In this document: one piece after another, positions 4,524 through 55,820 of the stretch
Layout: each line of letters begins with the position of its first letter
How positions within the stretch are numbered: the first letter of the stretch is position 1
Source of the DNA: a virus
Lineage: Duplodnaviria; Caudoviricetes
Reading direction: 5' to 3' (one strand)
DNA length: 64,000 nt
IMG/VR virus record: IMGVR_UViG_3300026085_000098
Span: 9,707 to 73,706 of that record
Notes under the pieces: generated by a model
Databases searched by the model: none
What the model saw: only the letters and a program-made list of their open reading frames with translations
What the model was told of the DNA's origin: nothing
Translations under genes and position numbers: made by a program

Positions 4524-4737
4524 TTAATACTTCTTTCGTTATTTTATTAGCCGGCATACAAGCAACATTTACTATTGTATCGTTGAATCCTGCAACATTG
4601 ATAACTTCTATTGCAAGTCTATCGCTGTTAGCAGGATCGTTGATATATGCTTTACATTGGTTTTGTGTGTCAAATTGTAAACTTTTGATTGCAAATGGAT
4701 CTGCTTCCAACATTGCAAATACGATTAACCACTTCAT
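4501..4737 (-). CDS. Small exported or membrane-anchored protein with a Cys pair
   Basis: MKWLIVF N-terminus, FDTQNQC and VNVAC; paralog of 58546-58803. Confidence 0.65.
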   Translation of the reverse strand: MKWLIVFAMLEADPFAIKSLQFDTQNQCKAYINDPANSDRLAIEVINVAGFNDTIVNVACMPANKITKEVLNETESKV

Positions 4738-4943
4738 TTTTTAACATTCAAATTCATTGGAGAATATTGTTCTCCGTTATACCCGCTACCAGTGCCGTCT
4801 ACGCCTGAGTTGCAAGCAAATACAACAACACATAAAAAGAAAGCACTCCACAGTGTGGCACGTTTACTCCAAAGGATGAATCCATCCATTGCTTCTTCTG
4901 CTTGTTTTTGTGCTGCTGCTCTTACATCATCACTCATTGACAT
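4734..4943 (-). CDS. Single-TM small protein, weakly resembling aa3 cytochrome c oxidase subunit IV
   Basis: EEAMDGFILWSKRATLWSAFFLCVVVFACNS resembles the E..F.GF-then-TM-then-N pattern; by-eye similarity only. Confidence 0.35.
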   Translation of the reverse strand: MSMSDDVRAAAQKQAEEAMDGFILWSKRATLWSAFFLCVVVFACNSGVDGTGSGYNGEQYSPMNLNVKK

Positions 4944-5032
4944 AGATCCTCATACTTGGTAGTATGGGCTCTGTGTAATACACCGTTTGGCAGTTTTTCA
5001 GTGGTGAATAGTTTTAGAAAATATTTTAGCAT
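4934..5032 (-). CDS. 32-aa small protein
   Basis: Hand-translated MLKYFLKLFTTEKLPNGVLHRAHTTKYEDLCQ; strong SD AGGAGA; first gene after a sigma70 promoter. Not in ORF track. Confidence 0.65.
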   Translation of the reverse strand: MLKYFLKLFTTEKLPNGVLHRAHTTKYEDLCQ

Positions 5033-5055
5033 CTGTGTCTCCTGTGTGTATATAA

Positions 5056-5084
5056 TATATAGCAGGTCAACTGTGTAAAGTCAA
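5056..5084 (-). promoter_or_regulatory. Sigma70-type early promoter
   Basis: TTGACT-N17-TATATA. Confidence 0.65.
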
Positions 5085-5113
5085 CCTTACTTGGGTGTGT
5101 AAAATTGTAGCAG

Positions 5114-5458
5114 TTATTCAATATTACGAACTTGCCTTCCGCTATGACACATTTTTATACATAGCGGAGGAGGATTATCACTATTCCATGCTTTTTCACA
5201 ACAATGATTTTGATAGTAATCATGATTTACTATATCATATAAATCATAGTAATTTAAATTATTCCAATTAGGATCTTGCTCGAAAGCCTTGGTCAGTGCT
5301 TTATCAGACATTAAAGTGTTATCTGTAGGATGTGCATAACTTTCTACTAGGTAATGACAACAAGGCCATACTTTCCCATCAATGTTAATTTCCCAATCCC
5401 GTTCTATTGCATCATCAAATTCGTTATAACTCATACAATCTATATTATACATAGCCAT
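5114..5458 (-). CDS. Stand-alone SPASM/twitch-like Fe-S domain protein
   Basis: INIDGKVWPCC and C-terminal PLCIKMC; GAGGA SD 8 nt before the second ATG (5452). Confidence 0.65.
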   Translation of the reverse strand: MAMYNIDCMSYNEFDDAIERDWEINIDGKVWPCCHYLVESYAHPTDNTLMSDKALTKAFEQDPNWNNLNYYDLYDIVNHDYYQNHCCEKAWNSDNPPPLCIKMCHSGRQVRNIE

Positions 5459-6122
5459 ATTCCTCTAATAATGATGTTGCTTCGTCTATAATTAATTTAT
5501 CACACAAACCTTCGGCAGGATTATCTGTCCTGGTAATTTTAAATACTAGTTGCCTTTTTTCAAGCTTTAGTCCTTTAGCAATGCTGACTACTTCTGGTAT
5601 TGTTTTGTAGTTCCAATTAAAAAGAATATAATGCCATTCTATTCTGCCGCCGTTTTCATGAAATGCAATCATGTTATCCCATGCTTGTTGGAACTTTACA
5701 CCTTTTCTGTATTTCCAATTCATTTCATGATCTATTCCATCAATGCCAAATGCAATGGTTAGTTTTCTATTCTTTTTTGCCTGCGCTGCATACCAGTTCG
5801 GTCGACGTATCCCCCCGTTTGTATTAATTAGAACACCATTTACTATATTATAGTCAAAAGCAATATCCAAAATTTCGTCTATACAAGGATGCATCATAGG
5901 ATCACCTAACTCTCCGCATAGTTGTAATTGGCCAAACTTTTGCCATTTAGTGTAGCCACTATCTAAAAATTTTTTAAAGTTAGATGGGTCCATGTGAAAT
6001 TGATTTTTTTTAATCCAATTAGAAGGAGTACCGTCTTCGTTATTTCTTTGACACCCTGCACAGAAGGCTTGACAATAACTTGAAATAGTTATATCAAAAG
6101 AGTTAATTTGTTTTTTTACCAT
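5445..6122 (-). CDS. Radical SAM enzyme (core domain only)
   Basis: CQAFCAGC (CxxxCxxC), GELGDPMMHP, INTNGG, FGIDG. Confidence 0.85.
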   Translation of the reverse strand: MVKKQINSFDITISSYCQAFCAGCQRNNEDGTPSNWIKKNQFHMDPSNFKKFLDSGYTKWQKFGQLQLCGELGDPMMHPCIDEILDIAFDYNIVNGVLINTNGGIRRPNWYAAQAKKNRKLTIAFGIDGIDHEMNWKYRKGVKFQQAWDNMIAFHENGGRIEWHYILFNWNYKTIPEVVSIAKGLKLEKRQLVFKITRTDNPAEGLCDKLIIDEATSLLEEYGYV

Positions 6123-6129
6123 TAAGCCT

Positions 6130-6448
6130 ACTATATGTTATGCCACTTTCTGTTGCTAGGCTGTGGCCGCCCCCTTAATTATGCTGCTAGAGCGTAACCA
6201 GAAGGTGCAAAGTTTGAATTTGCATCTAGTTTTTTTGACCAATAACGCAGTCATCCGGTTAACTCCACTTCACTTTCACACCTGTCGATCCCATGTCAGG
6301 CCCATCATAAACGCACTTTCTTGGCTCGGTCAGGAGTTGTGTGCTGCACCACACCTATTATGCAGATAGGCGAAATGCGTTTATGGTGGACCTGCCCGGA
6401 ATTGAACCGGGGTCCAGTATGTGTCCACGTTGCTTCAACGCTAACAGT
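6130..6448 (-). ncRNA. ssrA: Circularly permuted two-piece tmRNA; tag peptide (A)ANSNFAPSGYALAA
   Basis: Order on the minus strand: acceptor piece with T-arm CCCCGG-TTCAATT-CCGGG and CAGGTCC-A-CCA end (3' end at 6384); intervening segment bounded by the inverted repeat cataaacgca/tgcgtttatg; coding piece starting GGGCCTGACATGGGATCGAC at 6303; G3:U70 in the acceptor stem; tag ORF 6223-6179; late promoter TATAAATA at 6450-6457. Outer ends are approximate. Confidence 0.95.
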
Positions 6449-7018
6449 TTATTTATAAAGTCTATATTTTATAGTGTCAACCACTCTTTTACTTAAAACA
6501 ATTTCGTAATGGTTTCTATCAATTGTTGTGTATTCTACATCGCCTCTGCAAGTCATTGAATGTCGTGTAACAATACCATCATTCTTTCCTGATAACCAAG
6601 GAACATCACCTGTTGTAGTAACAATTTGTAACCAAGGAACTTTTATTGAAAGTTTTCTACTGCCTTTTATAAACGCACTATGTGGCGTAATGTCTCTAAA
6701 TAATTGGTATCCTGGATTAAGTAAACCTCCCCAAGTTGCTATCTCGCTACCATTAAACGGTGTAGCAAGGCTAACTACACCTTTGATGTCAAATAAATTT
6801 TGTAAGTACGTTGCATATACTCCGCCTAAACTATGTGCAATGATACTAAAAGGCCCCTTGTTTTCCTTTAGGATTTCTTTCATTTCATCTAGATTTTCTT
6901 CAGCAGTTGTTTCTTTATCATAATTCAGAAAAATAGGATCTTTTGCTTTTATTTCTTTTTGAATATAAGCAAAACTTCTTTCGCTTGCTGTAGCGCCATG
7001 TATGAAAATTGTTTTCAT
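6449..7018 (-). CDS. Alpha/beta hydrolase (lipase/esterase-like)
   Basis: FIHG oxyanion motif, AHSLGG nucleophile elbow, LATPFNG, NDGIV, NHYEI; late promoter at 7023-7030. Confidence 0.85.
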   Translation of the reverse strand: MKTIFIHGATASERSFAYIQKEIKAKDPIFLNYDKETTAEENLDEMKEILKENKGPFSIIAHSLGGVYATYLQNLFDIKGVVSLATPFNGSEIATWGGLLNPGYQLFRDITPHSAFIKGSRKLSIKVPWLQIVTTTGDVPWLSGKNDGIVTRHSMTCRGDVEYTTIDRNHYEIVLSKRVVDTIKYRLYK

Positions 7019-7025
7019 ATATTAT

Positions 7026-7526
7026 TTATAGTGGGTTTTTGCAAACCATTATTATCAGTGTGCGTCTTTGCTCTATACAATCAATAGCATCAAAGTCATG
7101 CCAAGTTTGCTCACCTCTAAAGAATGCTGTGCCACCGTTTTGTATATAAGGGTTTTGATGAGAAAACTCTGTTTTATTTTTATAGATTTTTGTACCTGTG
7201 CCTGTGTCTGCTAAACCTAAAACAAAAGTAAAAATCTTTTTAGGATTGTCTGTATGTACTTTATTGTACTGCCAGTCTATATCAATATTATCAAATTGTA
7301 ATTCTAAGTAGTGTCTAGAAAAATCATACTTCAATATATCAGACAAATCTAGCATAGGTTCTTCTAGCAAATCATGCCATTTACCTTCCTTAAAAGGATG
7401 CATTGTACGTGAATCATAACGTGGTAAGTTTTTACTATATTCGTTAAACTCTTTAAACACATCTTGAGGAAGAAAATCATGTATTAGATATTGTTTCCAA
7501 GGGTGTTCTATTTTCTCAACTATCAT
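7026..7526 (-). CDS. 2OG-Fe(II) oxygenase-like protein
   Basis: VHTD, GTGT, TWHDF, RRTL. Confidence 0.65.
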   Translation of the reverse strand: MIVEKIEHPWKQYLIHDFLPQDVFKEFNEYSKNLPRYDSRTMHPFKEGKWHDLLEEPMLDLSDILKYDFSRHYLELQFDNIDIDWQYNKVHTDNPKKIFTFVLGLADTGTGTKIYKNKTEFSHQNPYIQNGGTAFFRGEQTWHDFDAIDCIEQRRTLIIMVCKNPL

Positions 7527-8062
7527 ACAAGAACACTTTCATCTCGCCATTGATCATTTACATAATTTACAATAACACTGATCCTATCATCTTGTAAAGG
7601 TTCTAGTTTGTGAGGTTCATTCCCTGTGTTTACAAAAAACCATCCACTACCTCTTTTGGCTCTTGTTTTTATATTGTTGAAAGTTGTGCTTGTTTCTTGG
7701 TAATCTAGATATAATTGCAATGAAAAAGTTTTGGCATCATCGTCACAATGATCTTCTAACCAACTACCTTTAAGATCTTTACAAAGTTCAATTCTCAATC
7801 TATCAGTTGTGTAATCTTTACCTACAGTTTCGCCAAACATTCTTCTTGTTTCGTACGAATCAAAAAACTCAATTAAGTCCCAAAAACAAGGATGTTCATA
7901 GTGATGCATCCAATGCCTAACATTTTTATCTGTTCGTTTACCATTCAATGATCCCCAGGAAAGCACTTCAGACTCGTTTATAATGCATCTTATAAGTTCA
8001 TCGCTTATAAGTTTTTCAAACTGCCAAATTGTGTAACCTACATTAACTGTGTTTAATATCAA
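7523..8062 (-). CDS. 2OG-Fe(II) oxygenase-like protein
   Basis: DHCD, FSLQLYL, EPHKL, RISVIVNY. Confidence 0.7.
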   Translation of the reverse strand: MILNTVNVGYTIWQFEKLISDELIRCIINESEVLSWGSLNGKRTDKNVRHWMHHYEHPCFWDLIEFFDSYETRRMFGETVGKDYTTDRLRIELCKDLKGSWLEDHCDDDAKTFSLQLYLDYQETSTTFNNIKTRAKRGSGWFFVNTGNEPHKLEPLQDDRISVIVNYVNDQWRDESVLV

Positions 8063-8789: not shown

Positions 8790-8796
8790 ACTAACT

Positions 8797-8825
8797 ATAT
8801 TACTACGTAAGCAATTGATTGTCAA
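8797..8825 (-). promoter_or_regulatory. Sigma70-type early promoter
   Basis: TTGACA-N17-TAATAT. Confidence 0.65.
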
Positions 8826-8859
8826 GAATTATTTTACTGATTGTCAAGAATTATTTTAC
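8816..8859. repeat. Exact 22-bp tandem duplication
   Basis: tgattgtcaagaattattttac twice (8816-8837, 8838-8859). Confidence 0.95.
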
Positions 8860-8863
8860 GTGT

Positions 8864-9461: not shown

Positions 9462-9483
9462 TTATATCTCCTACATGTATTTA

Positions 9484-22005: not shown

Positions 22006-22242
22006 CTAGATTTGCATTATTATAACTACAATAGTGGATAGCAATCCTGCTACAATTGTTCCTGCGGCTCCAATAATGACCTTGGTCAAACTATTTTGTC
22101 CTGCTTGCATTTGATCCGCAATACCGTCTAGTTTATTTTCAACTGTAGTTAAACGCTTTTCAAACTGCTCGTAACGGAGGGCACACAGATCAACATGTGC
22201 TTCTAATGATTCTTTTTCTAATGCGGTTGATGTTAAAGACAT
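22006..22242 (-). CDS. Coiled-coil plus C-terminal TM protein (XhlA/holin-like)
   Basis: Heptads FEKRLTTVENKLD then VIIGAAGTIVAGLLSTIVVII. Confidence 0.5.
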   Translation of the reverse strand: MSLTSTALEKESLEAHVDLCALRYEQFEKRLTTVENKLDGIADQMQAGQNSLTKVIIGAAGTIVAGLLSTIVVIIMQI

Positions 22243-22319
22243 CTATTTTTATTCCTTGTAAGTAAACTCGAAGTTGGCCTTAATGTTGTAGATGCCTAAA
22301 TGTTTTTATAACACTAATA

Positions 22320-22706
22320 CTATTTATCTTTTATAACAAAAGTATTTCTATCTGCACTTCCATTAGTCAAAAATGCAGAAACCGTGAAATCATTTGTTTC
22401 CTCTAGATCAGTTATTATTGGAACTAAGTCAAAATCATTTATCAAATCTTCTAATGGAAATTCATTTTCATACTCAAAATCTAGTTGCCATACCTTTTGA
22501 ATACCTTTTATATTATTTCCAAAGTCTAGTTTATCTGTTTCTATTTCTGATACAATAGGTTGATTGTTAACGATAGCATTTGCCCTTAAACTTGCTGTTT
22601 GAATTACTGTAAGATAATTTTGCTGTTGCTTATATTCATAAGGATCATCGCCCCTTCGTGCATCAGTTCTTGTTATATCAACAAGGGTATACAAACTACA
22701 TCTCAT
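22320..22706 (-). CDS. Hypothetical late protein
   Basis: Likely start MRCSL at 22706, 4 nt after the AATAAGTA late-promoter variant. Confidence 0.65.
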   Translation of the reverse strand: MRCSLYTLVDITRTDARRGDDPYEYKQQQNYLTVIQTASLRANAIVNNQPIVSEIETDKLDFGNNIKGIQKVWQLDFEYENEFPLEDLINDFDLVPIITDLEETNDFTVSAFLTNGSADRNTFVIKDK

Positions 22707-22723
22707 ATTGTACTTATTCCATA

Positions 22724-22752
22724 AAAAAAGGGTCCACAAAATTGTGAACCCT
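22724..22752 (-). terminator. Intrinsic terminator
   Basis: aaaggg-tc-cacaa/ttgtg-aa-cccttt stem with T tract on the minus strand. Confidence 0.65.
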
Positions 22753-22774
22753 TTGGTTAGCCCTATTATGCTTA

Positions 22775-23158
22775 TTAAGCGATAGAAGCACCTGATGCAG
22801 TTAGTGCTGCGATTGTTGAAGTACCGCCTGTTGCTGCATCGATTGCTGCTTCTGCTGCACCCCATGAACCGTCAGCAGCACCTGCTGTTGAACCGTCGTT
22901 CATTGAATTTGCATTACATACAAACACAACGTTGTTTGATGCTGGTGTACCTACACCATATAGTTCTGCAAAACCTTCTAGTGCTGCAACTGCTTTGTGG
23001 AATGTGCTGTTTGCTGCTGTGTATCCTGTTTCGATACCTGTTAATGTGATTTTGAAGAAACCTAGTGCTGGTGTACCGTGGTCGAAACCAACTTCTGTTG
23101 TTCTTGCGTTAGCGCCAACTGTTGTTGAGCCAACTGATACTGAATATACGTCTGCCAT
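22775..23158 (-). CDS. Ala/Gly/Thr-rich structural protein (possible head decoration)
   Basis: Strong SD AAAGGAG, own late promoter (23217-23224) and terminator. Confidence 0.55.
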   Translation of the reverse strand: MADVYSVSVGSTTVGANARTTEVGFDHGTPALGFFKITLTGIETGYTAANSTFHKAVAALEGFAELYGVGTPASNNVVFVCNANSMNDGSTAGAADGSWGAAEAAIDAATGGTSTIAALTASGASIA

Positions 23159-23266
23159 TTTAATCTCCTTTAATTTACTCTATGGCTGTCCCACGCTCAG
23201 TGGAACTCTTATATTGTATTTACCATTTAGGAAAAATTATAGGGGTTTATGGCCGAAAAACGGAGT

Positions 23267-24355
23267 TTAATTGGGTCTCCAACGGTGTCTTGGCACTAAT
23301 TTTACTTTACCTGTAACGTAACCTTCACCGCCTTTTTCAGTACCAGTCATTTGCTTGATGTCAGCAGGCGCATCATCTAATTGATCAATAATATGATTCT
23401 TTACTGCTGCAACTTTGTTCAATAACGCAAAGATTGCAGGTAAACTTTTAGGACTTTGCTTGTGCTTTTCATATATTTTTACTTGTTTAGGTTGACTAAC
23501 TTTGCTTGTTTTCAGCCAATTAAAAAATCCATCTACATTAATTTGGTCTAGTTTTTGCGCTTTGACTGTTTGGTTACTAAATGTGTAGATAATGTTTTTA
23601 AGATCTGATAAGCCCGGTTGTGATTCTAAGAAATTATCAATAAATTTTGCATTGGCTTTTGCCATTTGTCTAATTTCATTTGTTTCTTTTGTATCTACTG
23701 TAGGTGTATGTGGTACATAGGTTTGTGCAAATGCAACAAGATCATTTGTTTGTATACCTTTAACATCATCTAAAGGTTGTCCTACTTTTGCACCAAAACT
23801 ATCATATTTGCCATGTAATGCTACACCTACTTTACTATTTGCAATACGTTTGCCAATTTCGCTGTTAGGATCTACACTGTAAGTAACCTTGTTAGGAGTA
23901 AATTCAATTCCTGATTTGCCTTTTGTTGCTGGCTTTCTTGGTGTGTAGAGCAAGTCTCCGTAGACATAGCCTTCAAAGTCCTTCGGAAATCCCGCTTCAA
24001 TAATTTTAAATAGATCTGACATCTCCGCAGCAAAATCTTTTCTCCATGGTTCCTGTTCAGCACCTTTGCCTGTGTTCATAATAAACTGTGCTAGATCATT
24101 AGCATCAGTACTCATGTTTTTGCCCCAGCCGTTTTTACCAGTAAGTACGAACGTACCGTCAGGCTCGCGGCCAAAATATACAGTTGGATTGCCGTCCCAT
24201 TTAATAGCAACTTTGCCTTGTCCTTGACCTAGTTGATCTAATGTGTCAGCAGCTTTCATTGCACCTGCTGCACCATCAAAAAATACAAGATCTTCAAGGT
24301 GATTATATTCTCTACCTTGCTGTGTTTCTACTAAACGGAACTCTCTATATCTCAC
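23267..24355 (-). CDS. ATP-dependent ligase-fold protein (RNA-ligase-like; DUF6267-like)
   Basis: Motif I KWDG, III YGDL, IV EGYV, V KLV; N-terminal NHLED. Confidence 0.6.
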   Translation of the reverse strand: MRYREFRLVETQQGREYNHLEDLVFFDGAAGAMKAADTLDQLGQGQGKVAIKWDGNPTVYFGREPDGTFVLTGKNGWGKNMSTDANDLAQFIMNTGKGAEQEPWRKDFAAEMSDLFKIIEAGFPKDFEGYVYGDLLYTPRKPATKGKSGIEFTPNKVTYSVDPNSEIGKRIANSKVGVALHGKYDSFGAKVGQPLDDVKGIQTNDLVAFAQTYVPHTPTVDTKETNEIRQMAKANAKFIDNFLESQPGLSDLKNIIYTFSNQTVKAQKLDQINVDGFFNWLKTSKVSQPKQVKIYEKHKQSPKSLPAIFALLNKVAAVKNHIIDQLDDAPADIKQMTGTEKGGEGYVTGKVKLVPRHRWRPN

Positions 24356-25187
24356 TGATAAGTTCCTTAATTCTTCTTAGGTGCTTGTCTGATAAACTTT
24401 CATTAGGTAGGCCTTTGCCTTCTTTTTCCATTGTATCTAGCCAAGGACCAACTAATGTTTCAAAGTTTGGATCCTTTCTAAGAAATGCAATTATGCTTTC
24501 AACAGTATAAGTATCTTTTTCTGTTGCACCTTTTCCGAGCAGTAATTCTGCGATGTCGTTCCAATTGTTAGCAATAACTTTATCACCTTGTGCTGGATCA
24601 ACTACGCCAAACTTAGGACTAAATTTATATCCTCTACCTCTTGCTATACTAGACAATAGAATTGCTCTATCTTTACCACTGTAGGCTGCTGTTCCACCAC
24701 GCTTTGCTCCACGTTGATAATCAGGGTCATCTGTAAGCATGAAGTCAGTTTGCACAAATCCTTTGCCGCCTTGAATAGGCATACGGAAGTGTACTTGGTC
24801 GCCAGCATCGTGAATATAACCGCCTGTAAATGGTACTGCGCTTTTATCACCAGTTTTAGCAATCATGTCCTTTTTGCTCATGTTCATGATTTGATCATCT
24901 GGAATGCCTTGCTTCTTGCACCAAGCGACAAGTTTTGCTTTTAATTCTTCTTTGCTTATTTTGTTTAGGTCAGTGTTTAGATCTAAGTCACCAGAACTAT
25001 TCTTTTCAAATGTTCCATCAGGATCTACTTTCTTGCCTGTTGTACCTAGCAAGTCATCGTCGACAAACTCTAAACCTACAATCTTTTCAATCGCAGCAAC
25101 CGTAGGTCTTACTGCTGGTGTAGGAATACGCTGTGTGAGTGGTCCTTCGGTTGTTTTAAAAACATTGCCGCCTTCTTTAAGAATCAT
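24345..25187 (-). CDS. Pol-beta superfamily nucleotidyltransferase
   Basis: LGTTGKK...SGDLD and third acidic motif QTDFM. Confidence 0.7.
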   Translation of the reverse strand: MILKEGGNVFKTTEGPLTQRIPTPAVRPTVAAIEKIVGLEFVDDDLLGTTGKKVDPDGTFEKNSSGDLDLNTDLNKISKEELKAKLVAWCKKQGIPDDQIMNMSKKDMIAKTGDKSAVPFTGGYIHDAGDQVHFRMPIQGGKGFVQTDFMLTDDPDYQRGAKRGGTAAYSGKDRAILLSSIARGRGYKFSPKFGVVDPAQGDKVIANNWNDIAELLLGKGATEKDTYTVESIIAFLRKDPNFETLVGPWLDTMEKEGKGLPNESLSDKHLRRIKELISEI

Positions 25188-25437
25188 TCTTTTGTGACTC
25201 CTTGATTTTTTCTACACCTGTAGAGAATTTTCTCGGATTAGAATTACGTATACTATTAAGAAATCTGCGCTCTAGGTCAAGTGCTTGTTCTTGTGGATAG
25301 GTATCATAAATTTTTCCTAAAAGATTGATTGCGCTTTCAATAATATTAGTACCCGTAGTCTGAATAAACTCGTTACTGTTATCTTTGCGATGTATATTAT
25401 TAAGTTCTTCAAGTATGCTTCTTGTTTTTTTTCTCAT
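25177..25437 (-). CDS. Hypothetical late protein
   Basis: Late promoter GCTAAATA at 25459-25466. Confidence 0.6.
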   Translation of the reverse strand: MRKKTRSILEELNNIHRKDNSNEFIQTTGTNIIESAINLLGKIYDTYPQEQALDLERRFLNSIRNSNPRKFSTGVEKIKESQKNDS

Positions 25438-25569: not shown

Positions 25570-26313
25570 TCAACTTCTAATTTTAAGGTTGTAGTTAATT
25601 GCTTCTTGTAGTATTGATAAGTCAATTCCTGCAGATTTTGCAGTTTTAATTATTGCCGATGTATCTTTAGGAAAACAGTGGCCGCCAAAGCCTCGTTCTT
25701 CTGTAACTTGTGTGTGACTTTCTGTAATGCGTTCATCTTGTGCAATTTCTTTTCTAACAGGTTCATAATCAATACCAAATTCTTCGCAAAGATCAAAGAT
25801 CTGATTGAAAAATGCAACCTTTGTGGCAAGAAAACTGTTGCGGAAATATTTAATTAATATAAGTTGCTCAACATCATGCACTCTAATGTCTATACAACCT
25901 AAGAGTTCTAAGAAAAGACTTTGCCAATGATGGTACCCATTGCCGCCTATAAGTATGGTATTACAATTTTTAAAATCTTGTAATGCAGATGCTGCTCTTA
26001 GAAACTCAGGTGAAAAACAAATTTCTCTATCAGGATAAAGTTCTTGTATTGTGTTCCAACCTTCTAAACTAATTGTGCTTTTAATAAGAATAGGTACGTC
26101 TGGAGCGTTGCGTAACACATCTAAAACATTGCTCATGTCACAACTGCCGTTATCTGCTTCTGGAGTAGACACGCAAACAATAATCATATCAGCATGTCGC
26201 AAATCGCCATAGTGTTCCTTAACAGGATCACTTATAATTACAGTATGAGATTGCTTAAAGATGCTTTCGTGTGCTTGTCCTACAAACCCGTAGCCTGCAA
26301 TTCCTATTTTCAT
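25570..26313 (-). CDS. ugd: UDP-glucose/GDP-mannose dehydrogenase, short form lacking the C-terminal domain
   Basis: GYGFVG, ICVSTP-like VCVSTP, KSTI, SPEFL, KYFRNSFLATK, GFGGHCFPKD. Confidence 0.85.
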   Translation of the reverse strand: MKIGIAGYGFVGQAHESIFKQSHTVIISDPVKEHYGDLRHADMIIVCVSTPEADNGSCDMSNVLDVLRNAPDVPILIKSTISLEGWNTIQELYPDREICFSPEFLRAASALQDFKNCNTILIGGNGYHHWQSLFLELLGCIDIRVHDVEQLILIKYFRNSFLATKVAFFNQIFDLCEEFGIDYEPVRKEIAQDERITESHTQVTEERGFGGHCFPKDTSAIIKTAKSAGIDLSILQEAINYNLKIRS

Positions 26314-26480
26314 TCGTTTTCTTTTCTCGCAAATTTAATATCACAATAACCACAAACTACATAACCGTCGTGTGGCACTTTGTAATATGTAAGAGGGTGA
26401 TCGTTGTTTTCACCAGAACACTTTGCAGTGTCACCATCTACATATACAATACGTTCTTCGTAACCTTTTACTCTATTCAT
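26310..26480 (-). CDS. zf-CHCC zinc-finger protein (NDUFS6/NUMM-like), 56 aa
   Basis: Hand-translated MNRVKGYEERIVYVDGDTAKCSGENNDHPLTYYKVPHDGYVVCGYCDIKFARKENE; C-x-G..HP..Y..CxYC..F; ATGA overlaps at both ends. Not in ORF track. Confidence 0.85.
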   Translation of the reverse strand: MNRVKGYEERIVYVDGDTAKCSGENNDHPLTYYKVPHDGYVVCGYCDIKFARKENE

Positions 26481-26723: not shown

Positions 26724-27512
26724 TTAACCAAAGTCTCCTGATACGTAAGCTTTGGTTTTACGATGGTTAGGATTCTCAAAGATTTTCTTTGTGCTGCCCT
26801 TTTCGATGATCTCTCCCAAATGAAAGTATGCTGTGGTATCAGAGATACGTCTAGCCTGTTGCATATTGTGCGTCACAATAACAATAGTATAGTTTTTCTT
26901 CAACTCTAGTATCAGTTCTTCAATGGCATTGGTTGAGATTGGATCCAATGCTGAACACGGTTCGTCTAAAAGTAAAATCTGTGGATCTACTGCAATACTT
27001 CTAGCAAAGCATAATCGCTGTTGCTGTCCACCTGATAGTCCAAACGCATTGTCGTTAAGTCTATCCTTGACTTCGCTCCATAGGTTTGCTTTCTTTAAAC
27101 TGTCTTCTACGATAGCATCTAATTGCTCTCGTGTTTCTGCCATACGATGTAGTCTAGGACCATACGCAATGTTTTCGTAAATGCTCTTGGGAAAAGGATT
27201 AGGCTTTTGGAACACCATTCCAACTGATTTGCGTAGGTTGTTCACATTTGTGTATTGTGTTCTATAGATGTCTGTGCCATCAATATCAACGCTACCTTTG
27301 GTAACACAATCATCAATAAAGTCGTTCATCCTGTTAAGGGCTCTAAGGAATGTACTCTTGCCACAGCCACTTGGACCAATCAGTGCTGTTACATTGTTCT
27401 TGCGTATGTCCAAGTCCGCATTAATAATAGCGTGATTGTCTCCGTACCAGATGTTCAATCCTCGCACGTTCATCTTCGCACTCTTGTTAAGTTCTAGTGT
27501 GTCTCTTACCAT
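26724..27512 (-). CDS. pstB: Phosphate ABC transporter ATP-binding subunit
   Basis: [45 protein letters not shown]. Confidence 0.97.
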
Positions 27513-28705
27513 TTTATTTCAAACCTCTTTCGTAACCAGATTGCTAATAAGTTTAATGCCACTAGGGCAACAAGTAGAACAAGGATAGCCGCACTGGTTT
27601 TCTCGGCAAAGCCTCGCTCGGGTGAGTCTGCCCATAGGAAGATTTGGACAGGTAATGTTGTAGCACTGTCTAATACACTGCTAGGAGGAACAAGAATAAA
27701 CGCAACCATACCAATCATCAGTAGTGGAGCCGATTCGCCTATGGCTCTGGCAATACCAATAATGGTTCCTGTGATAATACCAGGCATTGCCGCGGGCAAC
27801 ACTTGATAAATTGTTGTTTGTAATCTACTAGCACCAAGTCCATTTGATGCGTCACGTATTGCTTGTGGCACTGTTCTCAAGGCTGTCCTTGCTGAGATTA
27901 CGATTACGGGCAACACCAACACAGCCAGTGTGATGGCTCCAACGATACTGGCACTACGAGGCATACCAAAGAAGTTGATCAGCACTGCTAGGCCAAGCAA
28001 ACCATACACAATACTAGGTACAGCCGCTAGGTTGTTGATGTTTATCTCCATAAAGTCTCTGTAACGTCTCCAGCCTGAGCCTTTGCGTTTGGGGAACTCC
28101 TCCATATAGGTAGCACAACCTACACCTATGGGAAATGCTATACAAATAGCCAAGCCAATAGTGTAAACTGTACCTACTACTGCTCCCCAGATGCCTGCTA
28201 TCTCAGGGCTTCTACTATCTGAGTTCGTCCAGAAGTCCCAATTCCATGTGCGATAGATCGTACCTCGTTCTATTTCAGCATCAACGATATTACGCTGTGC
28301 ATCTGATAATTTATCGTATACACCTTTGACATACATATCAACATCTGTGTGTGCTACTAAAGTATATGTGCCTGGTGTTGTGATGTCTATTGTTGAATAG
28401 GCATTAGGTGTAACAAGTCCACGCAAGTTCTTCTTGCCTGTTCTATTCAGTTCTCCTACATAACCTTCGCCTACATCATATAATGCACTGTTGATTGTAC
28501 TCTTGGTACTCGACTCTATCTGTGTTACAGTTAGATCAATCTTTGTTTGTGTGAACGCACCGATGCCTCTGTAACCTAGTGTTGTAAAGAACACAATCAT
28601 TAAAACTGTGGTAAGAGTCAATGCTGCTTTACACGCATACTCAAGGCCTTTTTGTAGGCGTCTGCGTTTGCCGCTTAGTTTACTGTTTAAGTCTATCGAT
28701 TGCAT
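27506..28705 (-). CDS. pstA: Phosphate ABC transporter permease
   Basis: [51 protein letters not shown]. Confidence 0.95.
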
Positions 28706-29627
28706 TCTTATAATTCCTATATGCTATCCAGTTAAGGATGAACGTTACAACGAACAGTGTAAACGCAAGAGCAAATGCACTAAGGGTTTTCGCACTGTCA
28801 AACTCTTGGTCGCCTATGAGTAGTGTGACGATTTGAACTGTGACTGTTGTGACTGCGTTTAGAGGATTGGCTGTTAGATTTGCTGCAAGACCTGCTGCCA
28901 TAACCACAATCATAGTTTCACCGATTGCTCTTGCGATTGCCATAATAAATCCAGCGACAATGCCTGGTAATGCTGCTGGCAATATAATATCTTTTATACA
29001 CTCTTCTCGTGTGGCACCAATACCTCTAGCACCATCACGCATAGCACTGGGCACTGCTTTTATAACATCATCTGTGATTGAACTAATCAGTGGTATAATC
29101 ATTATACCCATTACTAGTCCTGCGGCCAGTGCTGACTCTGTAGCAACATCTAATCCAAATGTTACACCTATACTTCGCAGCCAAGGGCCTAGTACAATTG
29201 CAGCAAAGAATCCATATACCACTGTAGGAATTCCTGCAAGTATTTCAAGCAATGGCTTAACTATCATTCTCTGTGCAGGTTTAAGATATTCTGCCGTGTA
29301 TATTGCACTTAATAATCCTATAGGAGCAGCAATACACATTGCTATAATGGTTATAAAAAGTGTGCCCCATAACAATGGAACAAATCCAAACTCGCCTGAT
29401 GATCCTACTGAATCTGCTCTAAAGGCTGTTTGTGGGCTCCAAGTAGTATTAAAGAAAAAGTCCTGTGGTGGGACCATGGTAAAAAATTTGATTGTTTCGT
29501 AACTCAAACTTGCGACGATCGCAAATGTAATACCAATGGTGATCCAAGAACTTAAACGAAAGAAGCCTTTTAATAAATCTTCGTTGAGACCATTTTGTCT
29601 CTGTTTTGGTCCTATCCATATAAACAT
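28680..29627 (-). CDS. pstC: Phosphate ABC transporter permease
   Basis: WSPQTAFRAD, KPLLEILAGIPTVVYGFFA, RAIGETMIVVMAAG, IGDQEFDS. Confidence 0.95.
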   Translation of the reverse strand: MFIWIGPKQRQNGLNEDLLKGFFRLSSWITIGITFAIVASLSYETIKFFTMVPPQDFFFNTTWSPQTAFRADSVGSSGEFGFVPLLWGTLFITIIAMCIAAPIGLLSAIYTAEYLKPAQRMIVKPLLEILAGIPTVVYGFFAAIVLGPWLRSIGVTFGLDVATESALAAGLVMGIMIIPLISSITDDVIKAVPSAMRDGARGIGATREECIKDIILPAALPGIVAGFIMAIARAIGETMIVVMAAGLAANLTANPLNAVTTVTVQIVTLLIGDQEFDSAKTLSAFALAFTLFVVTFILNWIAYRNYKNAIDRLKQ

Positions 29628-29642
29628 CTATAACCTCATTGC

Positions 29643-29664
29643 GGAGTGGGCCGAAACCCACTCC
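29643..29664 (-). promoter_or_regulatory. pstS-pstC intergenic hairpin (mRNA stabiliser or differential expression)
   Basis: 8-bp stem ggagtggg/cccactcc with no U tract on the coding strand. Confidence 0.55.
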
Positions 29665-29674
29665 TTTTATGATC

Positions 29675-30670
29675 TTATTGTAACACGTTTGCACGTACTG
29701 TGTCAAGCTCTTTCTGTGGTAGAGGAATAAGTCCTGCATCACCTAATGAACCATCTGCACCTGCCAAGTCGTCTGACAAGTATAGTTCCATGAACTCACG
29801 CATACCTGGAATAACACCCATATGCTCTTTTTTAGCATATACATATAGTCCACGGCTTGCTGGATATGAACCGTCTGCGATTGATTCAAATGTTGGTGCT
29901 ACGCCTGAGATAGGAGAGCCCTGAATAACATCTGTGTTTTGGTCTAGGAATGAATAACCAAAGATACCATAAGCATTTGGATTGTTAGCAAGTTTCTGAA
30001 TGATAAGGTTATCATTTTCACCTGCTTCTACATACGCACCATCTTCACGGATACCATGACAGATACCTTTGAATGCTTTTTTGTCTTTTAGTTCTTTGAC
30101 CCACTTGTAAGTCTTACAACCTGATTCCATTACCAGTTCGCTCCACGCATCACGTGTTCCTGAACTTGGCGGAGGACCTAGCACTTCGATTTTAATTTTT
30201 GGGAATTTAGGATTAATTTCGCTCCAATATGTAAATGGGTTTGGAACAAGATTACCATTCTCTTGTGGAACATCTTTTGCCAGTGCTTGGAATAGTTCAC
30301 GTGGTGTGATTTCCAATGCTTCACCTGTGTTTGCCACTGCGAACACAATACCGTCATAACCCACTTTCATCTCTAGTGGTGTTACACCGTTTGCTGCACA
30401 AGTTTCTGCTTCGCTTGATTTGATTGCTCTTGAAGCATTTGTGAAGTCTGGGTGATCAACACCTGTGCCAGCACAGAATAGTTTCATACCACCGCCGGTG
30501 CCTGTTGATTCAATAACAGGAGCAGTGTTGCCCTCTGCAGCAAATGTTTCTGCTACGATTGTTGTGAAAGGATATACTGTAGAACTACCTACAACTCTAA
30601 TTTCTCGTGCTTCTGCGACAGTCGCCACAGCAAAAACGGCCACGAGTGCCGCTAACATTGATTTAACCAT
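29675..30670 (-). CDS. pstS: Phosphate-binding periplasmic protein
   Basis: Start MVKS at 30670 (SD AGGAGA); signal peptide; VGSSTVYPF, STGTGGG, NASRAIK, GPPPSSGTRD, YPASRGLYVY. Confidence 0.97.
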   Translation of the reverse strand: MVKSMLAALVAVFAVATVAEAREIRVVGSSTVYPFTTIVAETFAAEGNTAPVIESTGTGGGMKLFCAGTGVDHPDFTNASRAIKSSEAETCAANGVTPLEMKVGYDGIVFAVANTGEALEITPRELFQALAKDVPQENGNLVPNPFTYWSEINPKFPKIKIEVLGPPPSSGTRDAWSELVMESGCKTYKWVKELKDKKAFKGICHGIREDGAYVEAGENDNLIIQKLANNPNAYGIFGYSFLDQNTDVIQGSPISGVAPTFESIADGSYPASRGLYVYAKKEHMGVIPGMREFMELYLSDDLAGADGSLGDAGLIPLPQKELDTVRANVLQ

Positions 30671-30741
30671 TTTTTTCTCCTTATATGGTTTGCCCTGTTG
30701 GGCCATCATAAAATAAAGATGTAGAGTTGCCCCTACGCCGT

Positions 30742-30787
30742 TATTTATAATTTACTATAACATAAGTTTGTAACAGAAATATGACAA
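30742..30787 (-). promoter_or_regulatory. Pho box promoter plus nested T4-type late promoter for pstSCAB
   Basis: TTGTCAT-ATTT-CTGTTAC (30787-30770), exactly 10 nt upstream of a -10 TATAGT (30759-30754); TATAAATA at 30749-30742. Confidence 0.85.
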
Positions 30788-30923
30788 TACCTTTTTGCAT
30801 ATCGGGTATATCAAAATAACATAGCAAAACGGTCAGTTTTTATGCTATATAATATTGTAGAAGGAGAAAAACTAGCACTTGCTAGACTCGGATCACACAT
30901 ACATATATAGATTGGAAAACAAA

Positions 30924-31163
30924 ATGACAACTTTAGTTGCGAACACATTTGGTTGGTTAGGTTTTGCGGGCCTTGCTAACTGGTTCAAAAAATTGGCTGT
31001 AAAACTACAAGCACGTAGATTAGCCAACATCACCGTAAACGAATTATCAAGACTTTCAGACAGAGAATTAAACGATATGGGTCTTTCACGCTGTGACATT
31101 CGTTATGTTGCCGAAAAGCATTATGAAGATACTGTAAACGCAAACTTGAAAGGATGGGTGTAA
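30924..31163 (+). CDS. DUF1127 family protein
   Basis: RRLANITVNELSRLSDRELNDMGLSRCDI motif; likely start MTTLV at 30924. Confidence 0.9.
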   Translation: MTTLVANTFGWLGFAGLANWFKKLAVKLQARRLANITVNELSRLSDRELNDMGLSRCDIRYVAEKHYEDTVNANLKGWV

Positions 31164-31342
31164 TGGCTGAAGCAATTATGAAATACACATTCGCACCACT
31201 CCAAGGATTTTGGGCAGGGTTTTATAACTTCTGTGAAATCGCAGGTTATGCAAGAGCAGCATCAGAACTAGCACGCCATGGCTACTATGAAGAAGCAAAG
31301 AACTGTATGATGCAAGTTTCGAGACTACGCAATGACAGGTGA
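31163..31342 (+). CDS. Small protein coupled to DUF1127 ([19 protein letters not shown])
   Basis: TAATG overlap; start MAEA. Confidence 0.7.
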
Positions 31343-31568
31343 TATTGTAACTATGGGCGCCTACATTGGCGCAGGATTTGCTTGTTTGGGCATGGGCCTT
31401 GCAGCAATAGGTGTAGGACAAATTGTAGGTCAGTTTTTGAACGCCGCAATGGCTATGCCGCATCGTAGCACAGAACAAAACGCAAACCTATTTGTAGGTA
31501 TTGCTTTTGCCGAAGCACTTGGAATCTTTTCATTCTTAGTAGCATTGTTGTTGATGTTTGCAAGTTGA
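31332..31568 (+). CDS. atpE: F0F1 ATP synthase subunit c with a divergent polar loop
   Basis: [19 protein letters not shown] helix 1 and [24 protein letters not shown] helix 2 (proton-carrying Glu) of Rhodobacter type; loop AMAMPHRST instead of ALRNPSAA. Confidence 0.93.
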
Positions 31569-31569
31569 T

Positions 31570-31800
31570 ATGCAACCTCAAGGACCGATGTCTGCAGAGA
31601 TAGTAGACAAACTCGGAGTTATCTCATTTATAATGATGACGACTCTGATAATGGTTTGTATCCTAATTGGATTCTACGCTGTGTTTGATAGTTATTCAAC
31701 ACCACAACCAAATTGGAAAGCCGCTTGTATCGAAGCAGGCGGAGTTCCAGTTCAACTAGGATCAGACTATTTCGATTGTAAAGTAATAGAAAAGTCTTGA
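31570..31800 (+). CDS. Single-TM protein with a periplasmic Cys pair
   Basis: TM helix then WKAAC...YFDC. Confidence 0.6.
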   Translation: MQPQGPMSAEIVDKLGVISFIMMTTLIMVCILIGFYAVFDSYSTPQPNWKAACIEAGGVPVQLGSDYFDCKVIEKS

Positions 31801-31862: not shown

Positions 31863-32159
31863 ATGAATGATATGACAAAACAAATGGAGCAATTCGCTGA
31901 CATGTTCAAATCAGCAATTCCACAAGTCAAAACTAACAAAAACGGATACGAAATCCGCACAAAGGTATTAGAGTTCGCACAGAACCAAACATGGCAAGAC
32001 TATCACGCCAAGTGGGGTCAGTTCGAAACTACTGTTAAAAAAGACGGTGACGAAGTCGTTACTGAAGTAACAATGCCAGAAGTGCCTGGCGCTGATAAAG
32101 TGCTAGAAGCAGCCGAAAAGTTCTATAACTTTGTAAGCGGTAACATAAATAAAAAGTAA
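31863..32159 (+). CDS. Conserved T4-like hypothetical protein (NGYEIR...AEKFYNFV)
   Basis: Strong SD AGGAGA in a CA-rich leader. Confidence 0.75.
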   Translation: MNDMTKQMEQFADMFKSAIPQVKTNKNGYEIRTKVLEFAQNQTWQDYHAKWGQFETTVKKDGDEVVTEVTMPEVPGADKVLEAAEKFYNFVSGNINKK

Positions 32160-51000: not shown

Positions 51001-51158
51001 TTGATATCTCCTATTATGTTATTATTTATTATAATTTAAGGACTTCTAAAATTAAGATGAGTTTGATTATCCATTTCGTGCAGTATGCCTTCAGCAAACA
51101 CACCCATTTCGTGTGTGCCCGACACAGGAGTTAACTGCATTTGGATGTCAAAGGTTGA

Positions 51159-52757: not shown

Positions 52758-52760
52758 AGA

Positions 52761-53786
52761 TTATAGCCCCCATTTGTTTGATAGATAGTTTTCCACGTTA
52801 GAATATTCTGTACTAGTAAGAACTCTATTGAATATAATAACTTCTGCAACATAGCCACTGAGTCCACCTGTTTGCGCATCATTGTCTCCAATGTAGAATG
52901 TGCCAGCGGCTCCTGTGGTTGCTGGAACACTACCTGAACTTGCTGCTGTGCCTGCTGTGGTTTTGTCCAGTCTATAAGTTAAACTTGTGCTACCGCCATC
53001 ATATATCAATGTGTGTTGATGCCAAGTGTCTGCACTAACGGTTGCATCTGTGGTTCTTGTGTATCCGCCACTCATTGTAAGTTTCATTGTGCCACCATCA
53101 CTGAACATACCAAAGTCTGCTGTGTCAGTGTCAGTCATATATTCTGTGCCTGTTGCTGTAAGAACGTTGCTTACAACAAAGATTGTAAATCCTGTTGCAC
53201 CGTTCAATTGAGTAAACGGATTAACATTCAAGTTGTCATTGCCATCAAATTCAATATAACCATATCCGTTTTGTAGTGTTGTGTTTTCATATGTAGGTTT
53301 AGCACTGCCGCCGTTAGGATTAGCATTGTGAGCAAAGTTAGATTTGTCTGTCCATTGTGTGATCTGTCCTTCGTCTGTAGCACTCGGAACATATGTTGTT
53401 GTGTCAGCACCATCGTACCAAATCTGTAGGTCAGCAAGTGAATCACCGCCAACTGATTCCTGAATACTTTCTGGTGCAGCAATAGCACCTACTGCAATCC
53501 ACGGACGTTTTTGCAGCAATCCATCAGGGTTTGGATTGTCATCTGCTCCTGGAACGTTGCCATTGTATATGTCCGGCAATGAACTTATATCGTATGTGTT
53601 GTTTGAACGATAATAGTTTACTGTATCATTGTCAGTGCCATCGTCACTCCATGTGCCGTATACACCTACAACACCACCCGGATCGTCCGTGATAACTCTG
53701 CCTTTGCGTTTGGCTTGAGCATATTCTAATTTAGCAACCTGTCTTTCTTGTTTAGTTGCGAGTGTTGATATACCGTTCGCTGCCAT
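52761..53786 (-). CDS. Structural protein with LamG/concanavalin-like C-terminal domain
   Basis: LQIWYDG, QWTDKS, IEFDGND, FTIFVV, WHQHTLIY, FYIG, GYVAEVIIFNRVL, NYLSNKWG. Confidence 0.75.
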   Translation of the reverse strand: MAANGISTLATKQERQVAKLEYAQAKRKGRVITDDPGGVVGVYGTWSDDGTDNDTVNYYRSNNTYDISSLPDIYNGNVPGADDNPNPDGLLQKRPWIAVGAIAAPESIQESVGGDSLADLQIWYDGADTTTYVPSATDEGQITQWTDKSNFAHNANPNGGSAKPTYENTTLQNGYGYIEFDGNDNLNVNPFTQLNGATGFTIFVVSNVLTATGTEYMTDTDTADFGMFSDGGTMKLTMSGGYTRTTDATVSADTWHQHTLIYDGGSTSLTYRLDKTTAGTAASSGSVPATTGAAGTFYIGDNDAQTGGLSGYVAEVIIFNRVLTSTEYSNVENYLSNKWGL

Positions 53787-54031
53787 TATTCGTATCCTCT
53801 CGGGTCTTTTACTCTAATATCTGCAGGATGCTTAGGCTTATTAGGGCCGCCGCCAGCTAATGATGTTATTCTATCTACATTGGCGACAATTTCATTAGGA
53901 GTATTACTATACATTCCTTGTGAAGGATTGTCAATCATATCTTGAACCATGTGCTTACCGTCTTCTTGGTCCATCTTTTCTTGGGCATCAATATAATCAA
54001 TTAGGCCACGTAATATATCTTGAATTCGCAT
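53786..54031 (-). CDS. Small putative internal virion protein
   Basis: MRIQDIL; GGPNKPKHPADIR; SD AGGAG; late promoter at 54049-54056. Confidence 0.65.
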   Translation of the reverse strand: MRIQDILRGLIDYIDAQEKMDQEDGKHMVQDMIDNPSQGMYSNTPNEIVANVDRITSLAGGGPNKPKHPADIRVKDPRGYE

Positions 54032-54066
54032 TTATAACTCCTATACACTATTTAGTTAAATACGGT

Positions 54067-54264
54067 ATGTTCAAACTTATAAAAAAATGGTTGCATGAAT
54101 ATAACAAATATCAAAAAGACATGAGAGACATGGGATATTTTTATCATATACACGGGTGGGGCGTATACTCACACTTTGATAGAGAAACCTATGAAGCATG
54201 GCTAAGTAAAATGCATGATAGACACAAAACCATTCAAACAACTTCTAAGCACACTAAAGAGTGA
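54067..54264 (+). CDS. Hypothetical protein
   Basis: Likely start MFKL at 54067, 4 nt after GTTAAATA. Confidence 0.55.
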
Positions 54265-55414
54265 AGGAAAATACAGAGTTTTCAACGACATTGTTAGAGA
54301 ACGAGGAGATTTTCCTAAGTCTATCTGGTATGGCCCTTACAGTATAAAAAATATTATAAACTGGTGTTCCAACGATTACCTCGGTATGGGCCAACACAAA
54401 GTTGTGATAGATGCAATGCACACAGCATTGGACCAGACAGGTGCTGGCTCAGGTGGTACTCGCAACATAGGCGGTACATCTCACTATCACGTCGCACTAG
54501 AACATGAACTTGCCCGTTTGCATAGCAAACCCCAGGCTCTATTGTTTTCTAGTGCTTATGTCGCAAATGAATGGAGTCTAATCTCCCTAAGCAAGATCGT
54601 TCCCAACATTGTGTTTTTGAGTGACTCAAAGAATCACGCAAGCCTCATACAGGGTATCCGACACAGTGGTGCGCCTAAATCAATTTGGACCCACAACGAT
54701 ATGGACGAGTTAGAATCTCAACTGGCGAAAATTTCCACGCTGAACCAAACACCTTGTATAGTGTTCGAATCCGTGTATAGCATGGACGGTGACGTATCGC
54801 CTGTTGAGACTATTTGCGATCTAGCAGACAAGTACGGTGCTATTACCTACATTGATGAAGTCCATGCGGTAGGATTGTATGGAGAGCATGGAGCAGGTTA
54901 TCTAGAACTATTAGGTATTCAAGATAGGGTAGACATCGTAAATGGAACACTTGGAAAAGCATTTGGCGTTACAGGCGGGTACATAGCGGCTGATTCATTA
55001 GTCATCGATGCAATTAGATCAGTGGCAAGCGGGTTTATCTTTACCACTTCGCTAAGTCCTGTCCTTTGTGCTGGTGCGTTGGCCAGTATCAAATATCTAT
55101 CGGACCACAACGAACTTCGTCTTCGGCATCAGGCTCAGGCAAACAAATTGAAACAAGAATTTGCTAAGGTCGGAGTAGAAGTACACGATAAAGCCTGTAC
55201 TCACATCGTACCTGTAATGGTTAGAGATGCTTTAAAATGTAAAGGTTTGAGTGATAGGTTGTTAGATGACTATGGAATATATGTACAACCTATCAACTAC
55301 CCAACTGTTGCTGTAGGAGAAGAGCGTCTTCGCTTTGCTCCTACACCTTTACATAACGATTCAATGATATTAGACTGTGTAGATGCAGTCAGAAAGGTTA
55401 TAGATGAATATTAA
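54215..55414 (+). CDS. hemA: 5-aminolevulinate synthase (PLP-dependent, Shemin C4 pathway)
   Basis: [56 protein letters not shown] (PLP Lys), [23 protein letters not shown]. Confidence 0.96.
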
Positions 55415-55820
55415 AAAGATGTTTTGGGCTGGTGCCGGCTTTACATTACTAGGGATTGCATATTTAGGAGTAATACTTCCGGGTCTACCCTGGAGTATCT
55501 TTGTAGTTATGTCGGCCTACTGTTTTGCAAAGTCTAGCGATCGTATGCACAATTGGCTTTACAGCCATAAGTTGTTCGGTCCGTTTTTAACAAACTGGGC
55601 AACAAAGAAAGTGTTTCCTCTTAAACTAAAATATTTTATGATTGCTACTATGGCAACCACAGTTGCGTTCACTTATTTTGCAACTGGCAATGAAAAAGCT
55701 GCACTATGGACAGGAGGTTTTATGATCCTTGTTGCTGTTTACTGTTGGAGATATCCTAGCACTACAGAAGAATACGACAGACGAAAGGCTGCTGGTGAAA
55801 AGATTGCGTGGTTCAAATGA
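55404..55820 (+). CDS. ybaN: YbaN/DUF454 inner membrane protein
   Basis: [32 protein letters not shown]. Confidence 0.9.

Follow-up and report, generated by a model that had tools for sequence, protein, structure and literature searches.

That phages manipulate the energy conversion of their hosts has been well documented in the photosynthesis of cyanobacteria, and far less so in the respiration of heterotrophs, which dominate bacterial biomass turnover in the ocean. The photosynthesis genes of cyanophages encode functional replacements of core subunits with fast turnover. In tetrapyrrole synthesis, a phage 5-aminolevulinate synthase (ALAS; valaS) has already been published (Wegner et al. 2024, Nat Commun; PMC11480375), and enzyme activity has been demonstrated for a freshwater phage ALAS (PMC11480375). 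Here we analyse a stretch of 64 000 nucleotides, referred to below as the window, which comprises bases 9707–73706 of a linear IMG/VR virus entry of 73.7 kb (IMGVR_UViG_3300026085_000098) and contains five dispersed genes with likeness to components of respiration or haem synthesis. An earlier note on this DNA had taken these genes for a coordinated respiratory toolkit, a counterpart in heterotroph phages of the cyanophage photosynthesis genes. All five open reading frames (ORFs) were confirmed as open:

4734–4943, minus strand: CtaH-like single-pass membrane protein of 69 amino acids (aa), with COX4_pro_2 (PF07835) similarity at the family level
26310–26480, minus strand: zf-CHCC protein of the bacterial NDUFS6 type (PF10276), overlapping both neighbouring genes
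31332–31568, plus strand: ATP synthase c subunit variant, atpE (PF00137, NF005733)
54215–55414, plus strand: ALAS, hemA/valaS (TIGR01821)
55404–55820, plus strand: DUF454 (YbaN-like) four-helix membrane protein (PF04304), overlapping the end of hemA

Our analysis favours, with a probability of about 0.6, a reading in which the five are real and independent accessory genes in four transcription units, forming separately mobile modules, and in which each gene, we infer, acts alone on the energy metabolism of the host. The modules would be valaS–DUF454, a cassette in which a loop-less c subunit is accompanied by a DUF1127-like protein, a 62-aa protein and an 80-aa membrane protein, the CtaH-like small membrane protein, and the zf-CHCC protein.

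Linkage among the five genes

The window ALAS scores 553.4 bits against TIGR01821 (cut-off 338.55) over residues 7–398 of 399 and aligns end to end with the solved ALAS structures 7x98 and 2bwn (E 1e-129), with its pyridoxal phosphate-lysine motif GTLGKAFG pairing with GTLAKAFG of 7x98. The enzyme is predicted to condense glycine and succinyl-CoA to 5-aminolevulinate. Viral relatives at 71–83% identity were found on 460 IMG/VR contigs, while the best cellular relatives reach 51–58% identity only. The protein encoded by the overlapping gene belongs to DUF454 (97.5 bits against PF04304, cut-off 35.1), but its score against the E. coli YbaN equivalog (PRK10527) is 59.3 bits where the cut-off is 163, so that by the equivalog rule it is not a YbaN orthologue. 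The ALAS named in the earlier note is therefore borne out. Its YbaN call stands as far as the DUF454 family, and neither the equivalog name nor the proposed tie to haem and iron use could be sustained; no haem or iron role is established for the DUF454 family in the literature searched, where the sole link is up-regulation under iron starvation in one bacterium.

Co-occurrence of the five families was scored over the whole contig for 23 hemA-bearing contigs of at least 40 kb, and within 10 kb for atpE, CtaH-like and zf-CHCC loci, with the following counts:

23 hemA contigs of at least 40 kb: DUF454 22, CtaH-like 7, atpE 3, zf-CHCC 0
80 atpE loci, within 10 kb: DUF454 4, CtaH-like 12, zf-CHCC 0, hemA 4
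78 CtaH-like loci, within 10 kb: DUF454 0, atpE 0, zf-CHCC 0, hemA 0
19 zf-CHCC loci, within 10 kb: DUF454 0, CtaH-like 0, atpE 0, hemA 0

The only linked pair among the five genes is hemA and DUF454, and the single hemA contig without DUF454 stops 67 bases past hemA. In a neighbourhood count of 80 phage hemA loci, DUF454 adjoins hemA in 55, lying downstream in 48 (within 900 bases) and upstream in 7, and in 41 loci it follows hemA by at most 50 bases. Because both arrangements occur, the pairing outlasts a swap of gene order; on some contigs the two genes are 24–26 kb apart and still present together. A search to 4 kb around the 80 closest bacterial ALAS genes detected no homologue of the phage DUF454 protein. 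The link is one-sided. The idea that DUF454 is specific to hemA phages was rejected, as five contigs (19–68% complete) carry DUF454 without hemA.

The other three genes, atpE, the CtaH-like gene and the zf-CHCC gene, show distributions that are independent of hemA and also mutually independent. A complete relative of 221 kb (G050) has atpE, hemA and DUF454, and lacks the zf-CHCC and CtaH-like genes. The closest relatives (L369, L370 and L372), with backbone proteins up to 97% identical, keep the DUF1127 gene, the 62-aa gene and a homologue of the gene at 31863, and lack both atpE and its 80-aa partner gene. Another relative, G005, carries atpE at 97% identity together with the genes that flank zf-CHCC in the window, with zf-CHCC itself absent. 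Related phages thus gain and lose the five genes independently, and the genes are not one kit. The co-occurrence across relatives that a coordinated toolkit implies held for hemA–DUF454 and failed for the other three genes, and the toolkit as a co-inherited set is already largely refuted.

Three small subunit-like proteins

The c subunit scores 40.5 bits against PF00137 (cut-off 24) and passes NF005733 narrowly (87.5 vs 85), and its closest cellular relatives are AtpE proteins of Rhodobacteraceae and Paracoccaceae at 65–71% identity. Nearly all cellular relatives have the loop GALRNPSAA; the window copy reads AAMAMPHRS at this position, with R-N-P replaced by A-M-P, and has GMGL in place of GMGG. 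The R-N/Q-P loop, the polar loop by which the ring is coupled to F1 gamma/epsilon, is found in none of 80 phage copies sampled from 82 viral contigs, in which the loop varies in sequence and length (proteins of 72–78 aa) and both helices are almost invariant. The proton-binding Glu, within GIAFAEALG in the window copy, is retained in all 80 as well as in the window. From established E. coli genetics, loss of the R-N/Q-P loop speaks against the c subunit being a working spare part.

The real unit around atpE is a cassette of four genes, the remaining members of which are the following:

30924–31163, plus strand: DUF1127-like small protein, first gene of the cassette, assigned by similarity to a relative's PF06568 copy
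31154–31342, plus strand: 62-aa soluble protein, directly upstream of atpE and overlapping it
31558–31800, plus strand: single-pass membrane protein of 80 aa whose periplasmic tail has two Cys; its gene follows atpE directly and overlaps it

The first of these products shares 33% identity (E 5e-9) with the homologue of a relative, which itself reaches 33.4 bits on PF06568, and DUF1127 homologues lie near atpE in 65/80 phage loci. The minus-strand ORF at 30893–31099 is probably spurious, as the plus-strand gene at 30924–31163 encodes this protein. Homologues of the 62-aa protein, for which Pfam and PHROG gave zero matches, adjoin atpE in 75 of the 80 loci, and those of the 80-aa protein in 60. 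No other Fo gene (atpB, atpF) was recognised beside atpE, the flanking genes having no Pfam match to ATP-synthase families.

The CtaH-like protein belongs to a family present on 531 viral contigs, referred to here as the 4734 family. Taken alone, the window copy has zero matches in Pfam (PF07835 at E up to 1), NCBIfam and PHROG, and PF07835 searched against the whole record at E up to 10 gave nothing, where the same control recovered ctaH in 15 of 16 alphaproteobacterial genomes. At the family level, PF07835 is the best Pfam match for 12 of 13 phage members, one of them above the cut-off (25.7 vs 22), and hhalign of the family against CtaH gave 95.7% probability. We also built our own CtaH model from 14 bacterial CtaH sequences; its top 16 matches among 4807 background ORFs were all 4734-family ORFs other than the window copy. 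Conversely, the 4734-family profile had the ctaH locus as its best match in 6 of 16 alphaproteobacterial genomes searched in six frames, and the Paracoccus aa3 subunit IV as its top three matches in the whole PDB. Common to CtaH and the phage family are a cytoplasmic E-x-T-F-x-G-F-I motif, in which the window copy has A-M instead of T-F, and one transmembrane helix. CtaH ends shortly past this single helix, and the phage family continues into a conserved periplasmic tail of about 25 residues (C-N-x-G-V ... Y-N-G-E-x-Y-x-P), which opens with an invariant Cys placed in a lipobox-like setting. These comparisons suggest, with moderate confidence, that the 4734 family is a derived CtaH homologue, of which the window copy is the most diverged branch. 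To our knowledge, CtaH has no known function. Two small genes frequently accompany the CtaH-like gene:

4305–4737, minus strand: two small genes encoding proteins of 72 and 78 aa

Their homologues lie within 10 kb on the same strand in 26/78 (72 aa) and 24/78 (78 aa) of the CtaH-like loci, and neither has a Pfam or PHROG match.

The zf-CHCC protein scores 36.7 bits against PF10276 (cut-off 27), and its PDB matches are exclusively NDUFS6 or zf-CHCC proteins. Against the 62-aa complex I subunit of Paracoccus denitrificans (8qby_R) it gave 23 bits (E 7e-4), with the zinc ligands C21, H28, C43 and C46 of the window protein aligned with those of 8qby_R. The Asp that follows CGYC, equivalent to Paracoccus Asp48, is kept, and in Paracoccus denitrificans complex I this residue bridges a Ca2+ to NDUFS8 (PMC11522691). 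We regard the window protein as a putative complex I subunit. Relatives occur on 19 viral contigs, and in the window the gene is embedded between a 100-aa ORF and a UDP-glucose-dehydrogenase-like gene:

25570–26313, minus strand: UDP-glucose/GDP-mannose dehydrogenase-like protein of 247 aa, directly downstream of zf-CHCC

The partial matches of its N-terminal and central domains suggest a truncated or derived dehydrogenase.

The identities proposed in the earlier note for the AtpE variant and the NDUFS6-like protein were upheld. The CtaH-like call, flagged there as weak, is supported for the family and not for the window copy by itself. The comparison with cyanophage genes of the psbA type is doubtful for both the c subunit and the CtaH-like protein, because these look like altered versions (the loop lost in 80/80, the tail added) and not spare parts.

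The variable island and its phage

Relatives of the window share a conserved backbone, with homologues of 22006–25437 on one side and of 57036–60190 on the other, between which lies a variable island of 6–8 kb of small genes ending in hemA–DUF454. In one relative or another the island holds atpE, the CtaH-like gene with its 4305 homologue, zf-CHCC and pstSCAB. In the window the island is split, and the CtaH-like gene is 26 kb from atpE. The first block listed here splits the island, at a place where in most relatives no more than the 6–8-kb island separates the 25177 homologue from hemA, and has the appearance of a sizeable insertion in, or rearrangement of, a host-range region; the second entry is a small gene of the island:

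32486–53786, minus strand: giant virion/tail-fibre block of 21 kb, encoding proteins of 2263, 1429, 959, 660 and 532 aa and a Laminin_G_3 protein
31863–32159, plus strand: 98-aa protein, the most widely kept small island gene

Homologues of the 98-aa protein, which has zero Pfam or PHROG families, occur in 48/80 hemA loci and in 10/10 backbone-anchored loci, the latter being the loci with enough flank and too few for statistics. An alternative oxidase (AOX; PF01786, 249–278 bits) is present on 4 of 36 related phage contigs (among them L387, L388 and L389), and the copy of G017 (L389, G017:C1:11182–11754) is 1.5 kb from hemA–DUF454. The accessory gene pool of this lineage thus touches the respiratory chain repeatedly; it is visibly rich in respiratory-chain look-alikes, from which each phage draws independently. 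Pfam searches of 99 conserved small ORF clusters near the relatives' hemA and atpE genes returned glutaredoxin, IscU, ClpS, RegA, gp33-like, PAAR, DUF1127 and a marginal DoxX, and no further respiratory subunits. IscU (NifU_N, E 2e-51), ClpS, glutaredoxins and a marginal DoxX-like membrane protein are among the relatives' ORFs at L039:7688–8071, L190:6933–7232 and L243:4313–4720, the families having been assigned to these loci by reading the sequences and not from a per-protein table.

CheckV gave the 73.7-kb record a completeness of 35%, and G+C within the window ranges from 0.35 to 0.43. Besides the giant structural proteins (2263 and 1429 aa) and the 660-aa tail fibre, the window encodes a class I ribonucleotide reductase and a tail-fibre-like protein with an Mtd_N domain. 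The phage is T4-like, since genes for T4 RegA, for a late-transcription coactivator resembling gp33 and for clamp-loader subunit A are found in its relatives. It is a marine phage, and its host is probably an alphaproteobacterium. ARAGORN called a permuted (two-piece) transfer-messenger RNA at 6088–6477 on the minus strand, with tag peptide ANSNFAPSGYALAA; such permuted molecules are typical of Alphaproteobacteria, and the call fits the inferred host group. Searches of 50,697 phage records for cultured relatives gave zero matches by megablast with 12 kb of the window, and tblastn with the ALAS found only Kbl/BioF-type paralogues, mostly on records resembling bacterial contamination. For the five genes and the small genes around them, PHROG yielded no informative name. 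Other genes of the window are the following:

26724–30709, minus strand: phosphate ABC transporter block pstSCAB, with pstB (ABC_tran) and pstS (PBP_like_2) recognised by Pfam and two permease-sized ORFs between them
57036–57566, right of hemA–DUF454: HNH endonuclease
59180–59737, right of hemA–DUF454: AlgH-like DUF179 protein
62255–63154, right of hemA–DUF454: radical SAM/SPASM protein

The pstSCAB block is absent from the closest relatives (L369, L370, L372), and homologues of the HNH and AlgH-like genes adjoin hemA–DUF454 in many relatives. In promoter scans the T4-type late motif TATAAATA occurs 9 times vs 6.4 expected; one copy, at 30742–30749, lies just upstream of pstS, while hemA, the atpE cassette and the 4734 gene have none ahead of them. 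The sequence TGCTATATA is found ahead of the atpE cassette and of the 4734 unit, its two matches not exceeding chance, and a sigma-70 scan around hemA was at the level of its shuffles.

Competing readings and known systems

Under the reading of independent modules, ALAS would raise 5-aminolevulinate and so tetrapyrrole supply, with DUF454 as its constant membrane partner. The c subunit, CtaH-like and zf-CHCC proteins would derive from peripheral subunits of the host's complexes V, IV and I, into which they most likely insert or to which they bind. The c subunit and the CtaH-like protein probably modify these complexes rather than replace worn parts, since the former has lost the loop that couples to F1 and the latter has gained a conserved tail. 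A more far-reaching proposal, which we put forward tentatively and consider unlikely to hold as a whole, is one of subunit mimicry by marine T4-like phages of alphaproteobacteria: altered small peripheral subunits (the NDUFS6 type for complex I, the tailed CtaH type for complex IV and the loop-less c subunit for complex V) would assemble into the host enzymes, where electron flow and ATP coupling would be re-tuned or short-circuited, ALAS–DUF454 and AOX would adjust haem supply and electron exit, and the genes would be drawn as needed from a shared island and not as a block.

Several observations weigh against independent modules, and some of them favour the older idea of one co-selected toolkit that sustains or boosts host oxidative phosphorylation. 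The identities of all five genes hold at least at family level, AOX is found in relatives in addition, and every one of the five families, like AOX, has been located in the shared island of some relative, at no more than 10 kb from hemA. A non-random respiratory theme may run through these five genes among about 90. Three contigs (G002, G003 and G005) hold atpE, the CtaH-like gene, hemA and DUF454 together. Most contigs of relatives are fragmentary (6–77% complete), so that many absences are weak evidence, and those of the closest relatives end before the hemA position and are therefore uninformative on hemA. The window copy of the CtaH-like protein, for its part, reaches 10.4 bits (E 0.14) on our CtaH model, behind two unrelated ORFs. 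We nevertheless consider a co-selected toolkit distinctly improbable: co-occurrence fails in every anchored search and in the complete genome of G050, the genes are spread over four units, on both strands and at distances of up to 50 kb, the coupling loop is gone from every phage c subunit sampled, and G002 and G003 are near-identical, which leaves about two independent cases of the joint occurrence.

The small proteins might also act outside respiration, their homologies being real: the c subunit and its membrane partner as a pore or proton leak, timing lysis or blocking superinfection, the CtaH-like protein as a small lipoprotein precursor and the zf-CHCC protein as a generic zinc ribbon. 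Consistent with this, every 4734-family member has a lipobox-like V/L-x-G/A/S-C straight after the helix, followed by the conserved tail; the c subunit is always with phage-only partners and never with other atp genes; and zf-CHCC stands beside sugar-nucleotide and phosphate-uptake genes, not respiratory ones. However, the almost invariant, Rhodobacteraceae-like helices and Glu of the c subunit fit entry into the host c-ring, the cytoplasmic E-x-T/A-F/M-x-x-F-I of the 4734 family is a CtaH hallmark unlike the usual n-region of a signal peptide, and the zinc finger keeps the Asp that reaches NDUFS8 through Ca2+ in Paracoccus complex I (PMC11522691). On this evidence we judge such roles rather unlikely. 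It is hardly credible that the respiratory-type genes stem from host DNA, on a contig that is chimeric or misclassified. Clear alphaproteobacterial homologues do exist, and hemA lies in the slightly G+C-richer right part of the window (0.43 vs about 0.37), but for each gene other viral contigs hold tens to hundreds of closer relatives, with phage synteny conserved, cellular ALAS reaches 58% identity at best vs 83% for phage copies, and phage genes flank the respiratory-type genes on both sides. Host contamination was rejected on these grounds.

Four findings we regard as solid: a phage ALAS, already published, whose constant DUF454 partner had gone unremarked; a c subunit that lacks the loop and is widespread; a CtaH-like family that occurs on over 500 viral contigs; and an NDUFS6-type zinc finger encoded by phages. 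The co-inherited toolkit is not solid. The hemA–DUF454 linkage offers a lead to the function of a widespread family of membrane proteins. Should host complexes I, IV and V really take up the small proteins, these would offer natural probes for subunits with unclear roles, and a way to study what infection does to the respiration and carbon use of marine alphaproteobacteria.

The phage c subunits share with the AtpE of Rhodobacterales the two helices, the region of the glycine motif and, within AFAEALG, the proton-binding Glu, whereas R-N-P is missing, the loop is variable and the gene stands without atpB or atpF in a phage-only cassette. The zf-CHCC protein equals Paracoccus NDUFS6 (8qby chain R; PMC11522691) in size, in its single zf-CHCC domain, in the four zinc ligands and in the Asp48 equivalent, although similarity is low (23 bits, E 7e-4) and the phage gene lies among phosphate-uptake and sugar-nucleotide genes. 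With CtaH (COX4_pro_2; 1qle chain D and 7ate chain D), the phage family shares E-x-T-F-x-G-F-I followed by one transmembrane helix, as well as reciprocal profile matches; it differs in the extra tail of about 25 residues, and the window copy by itself falls below every threshold. The DUF454 protein has the Pfam family and the length of E. coli YbaN, and differs in its equivalog score (59.3 bits vs 163).

The cyanophage photosynthesis sets (psbA, psbD, PTOX) are alike in being host-derived genes for the main energy-converting membrane system, placed in variable regions of T4-like phages, and an oxidase of the PTOX/AOX family is also present in relatives here; in contrast, the candidates described here are small peripheral subunits, two of them visibly altered, that are not co-inherited. 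The likeness to the valaS of Wegner et al. (PMC11480375) lies in the full length of the ALAS, in its place on contigs of marine T4-like (pelagimyophage-like) phages and in a clade separate from bacterial ALAS, and the published examples also include stand-alone valaS, as in the window. A hemO or pcyX cassette is absent beside hemA in the window, and while the main text of that study makes no mention of DUF454/YbaN or ATP synthase (PMC11480375), DUF454 is a near-constant partner of the phage ALAS here.

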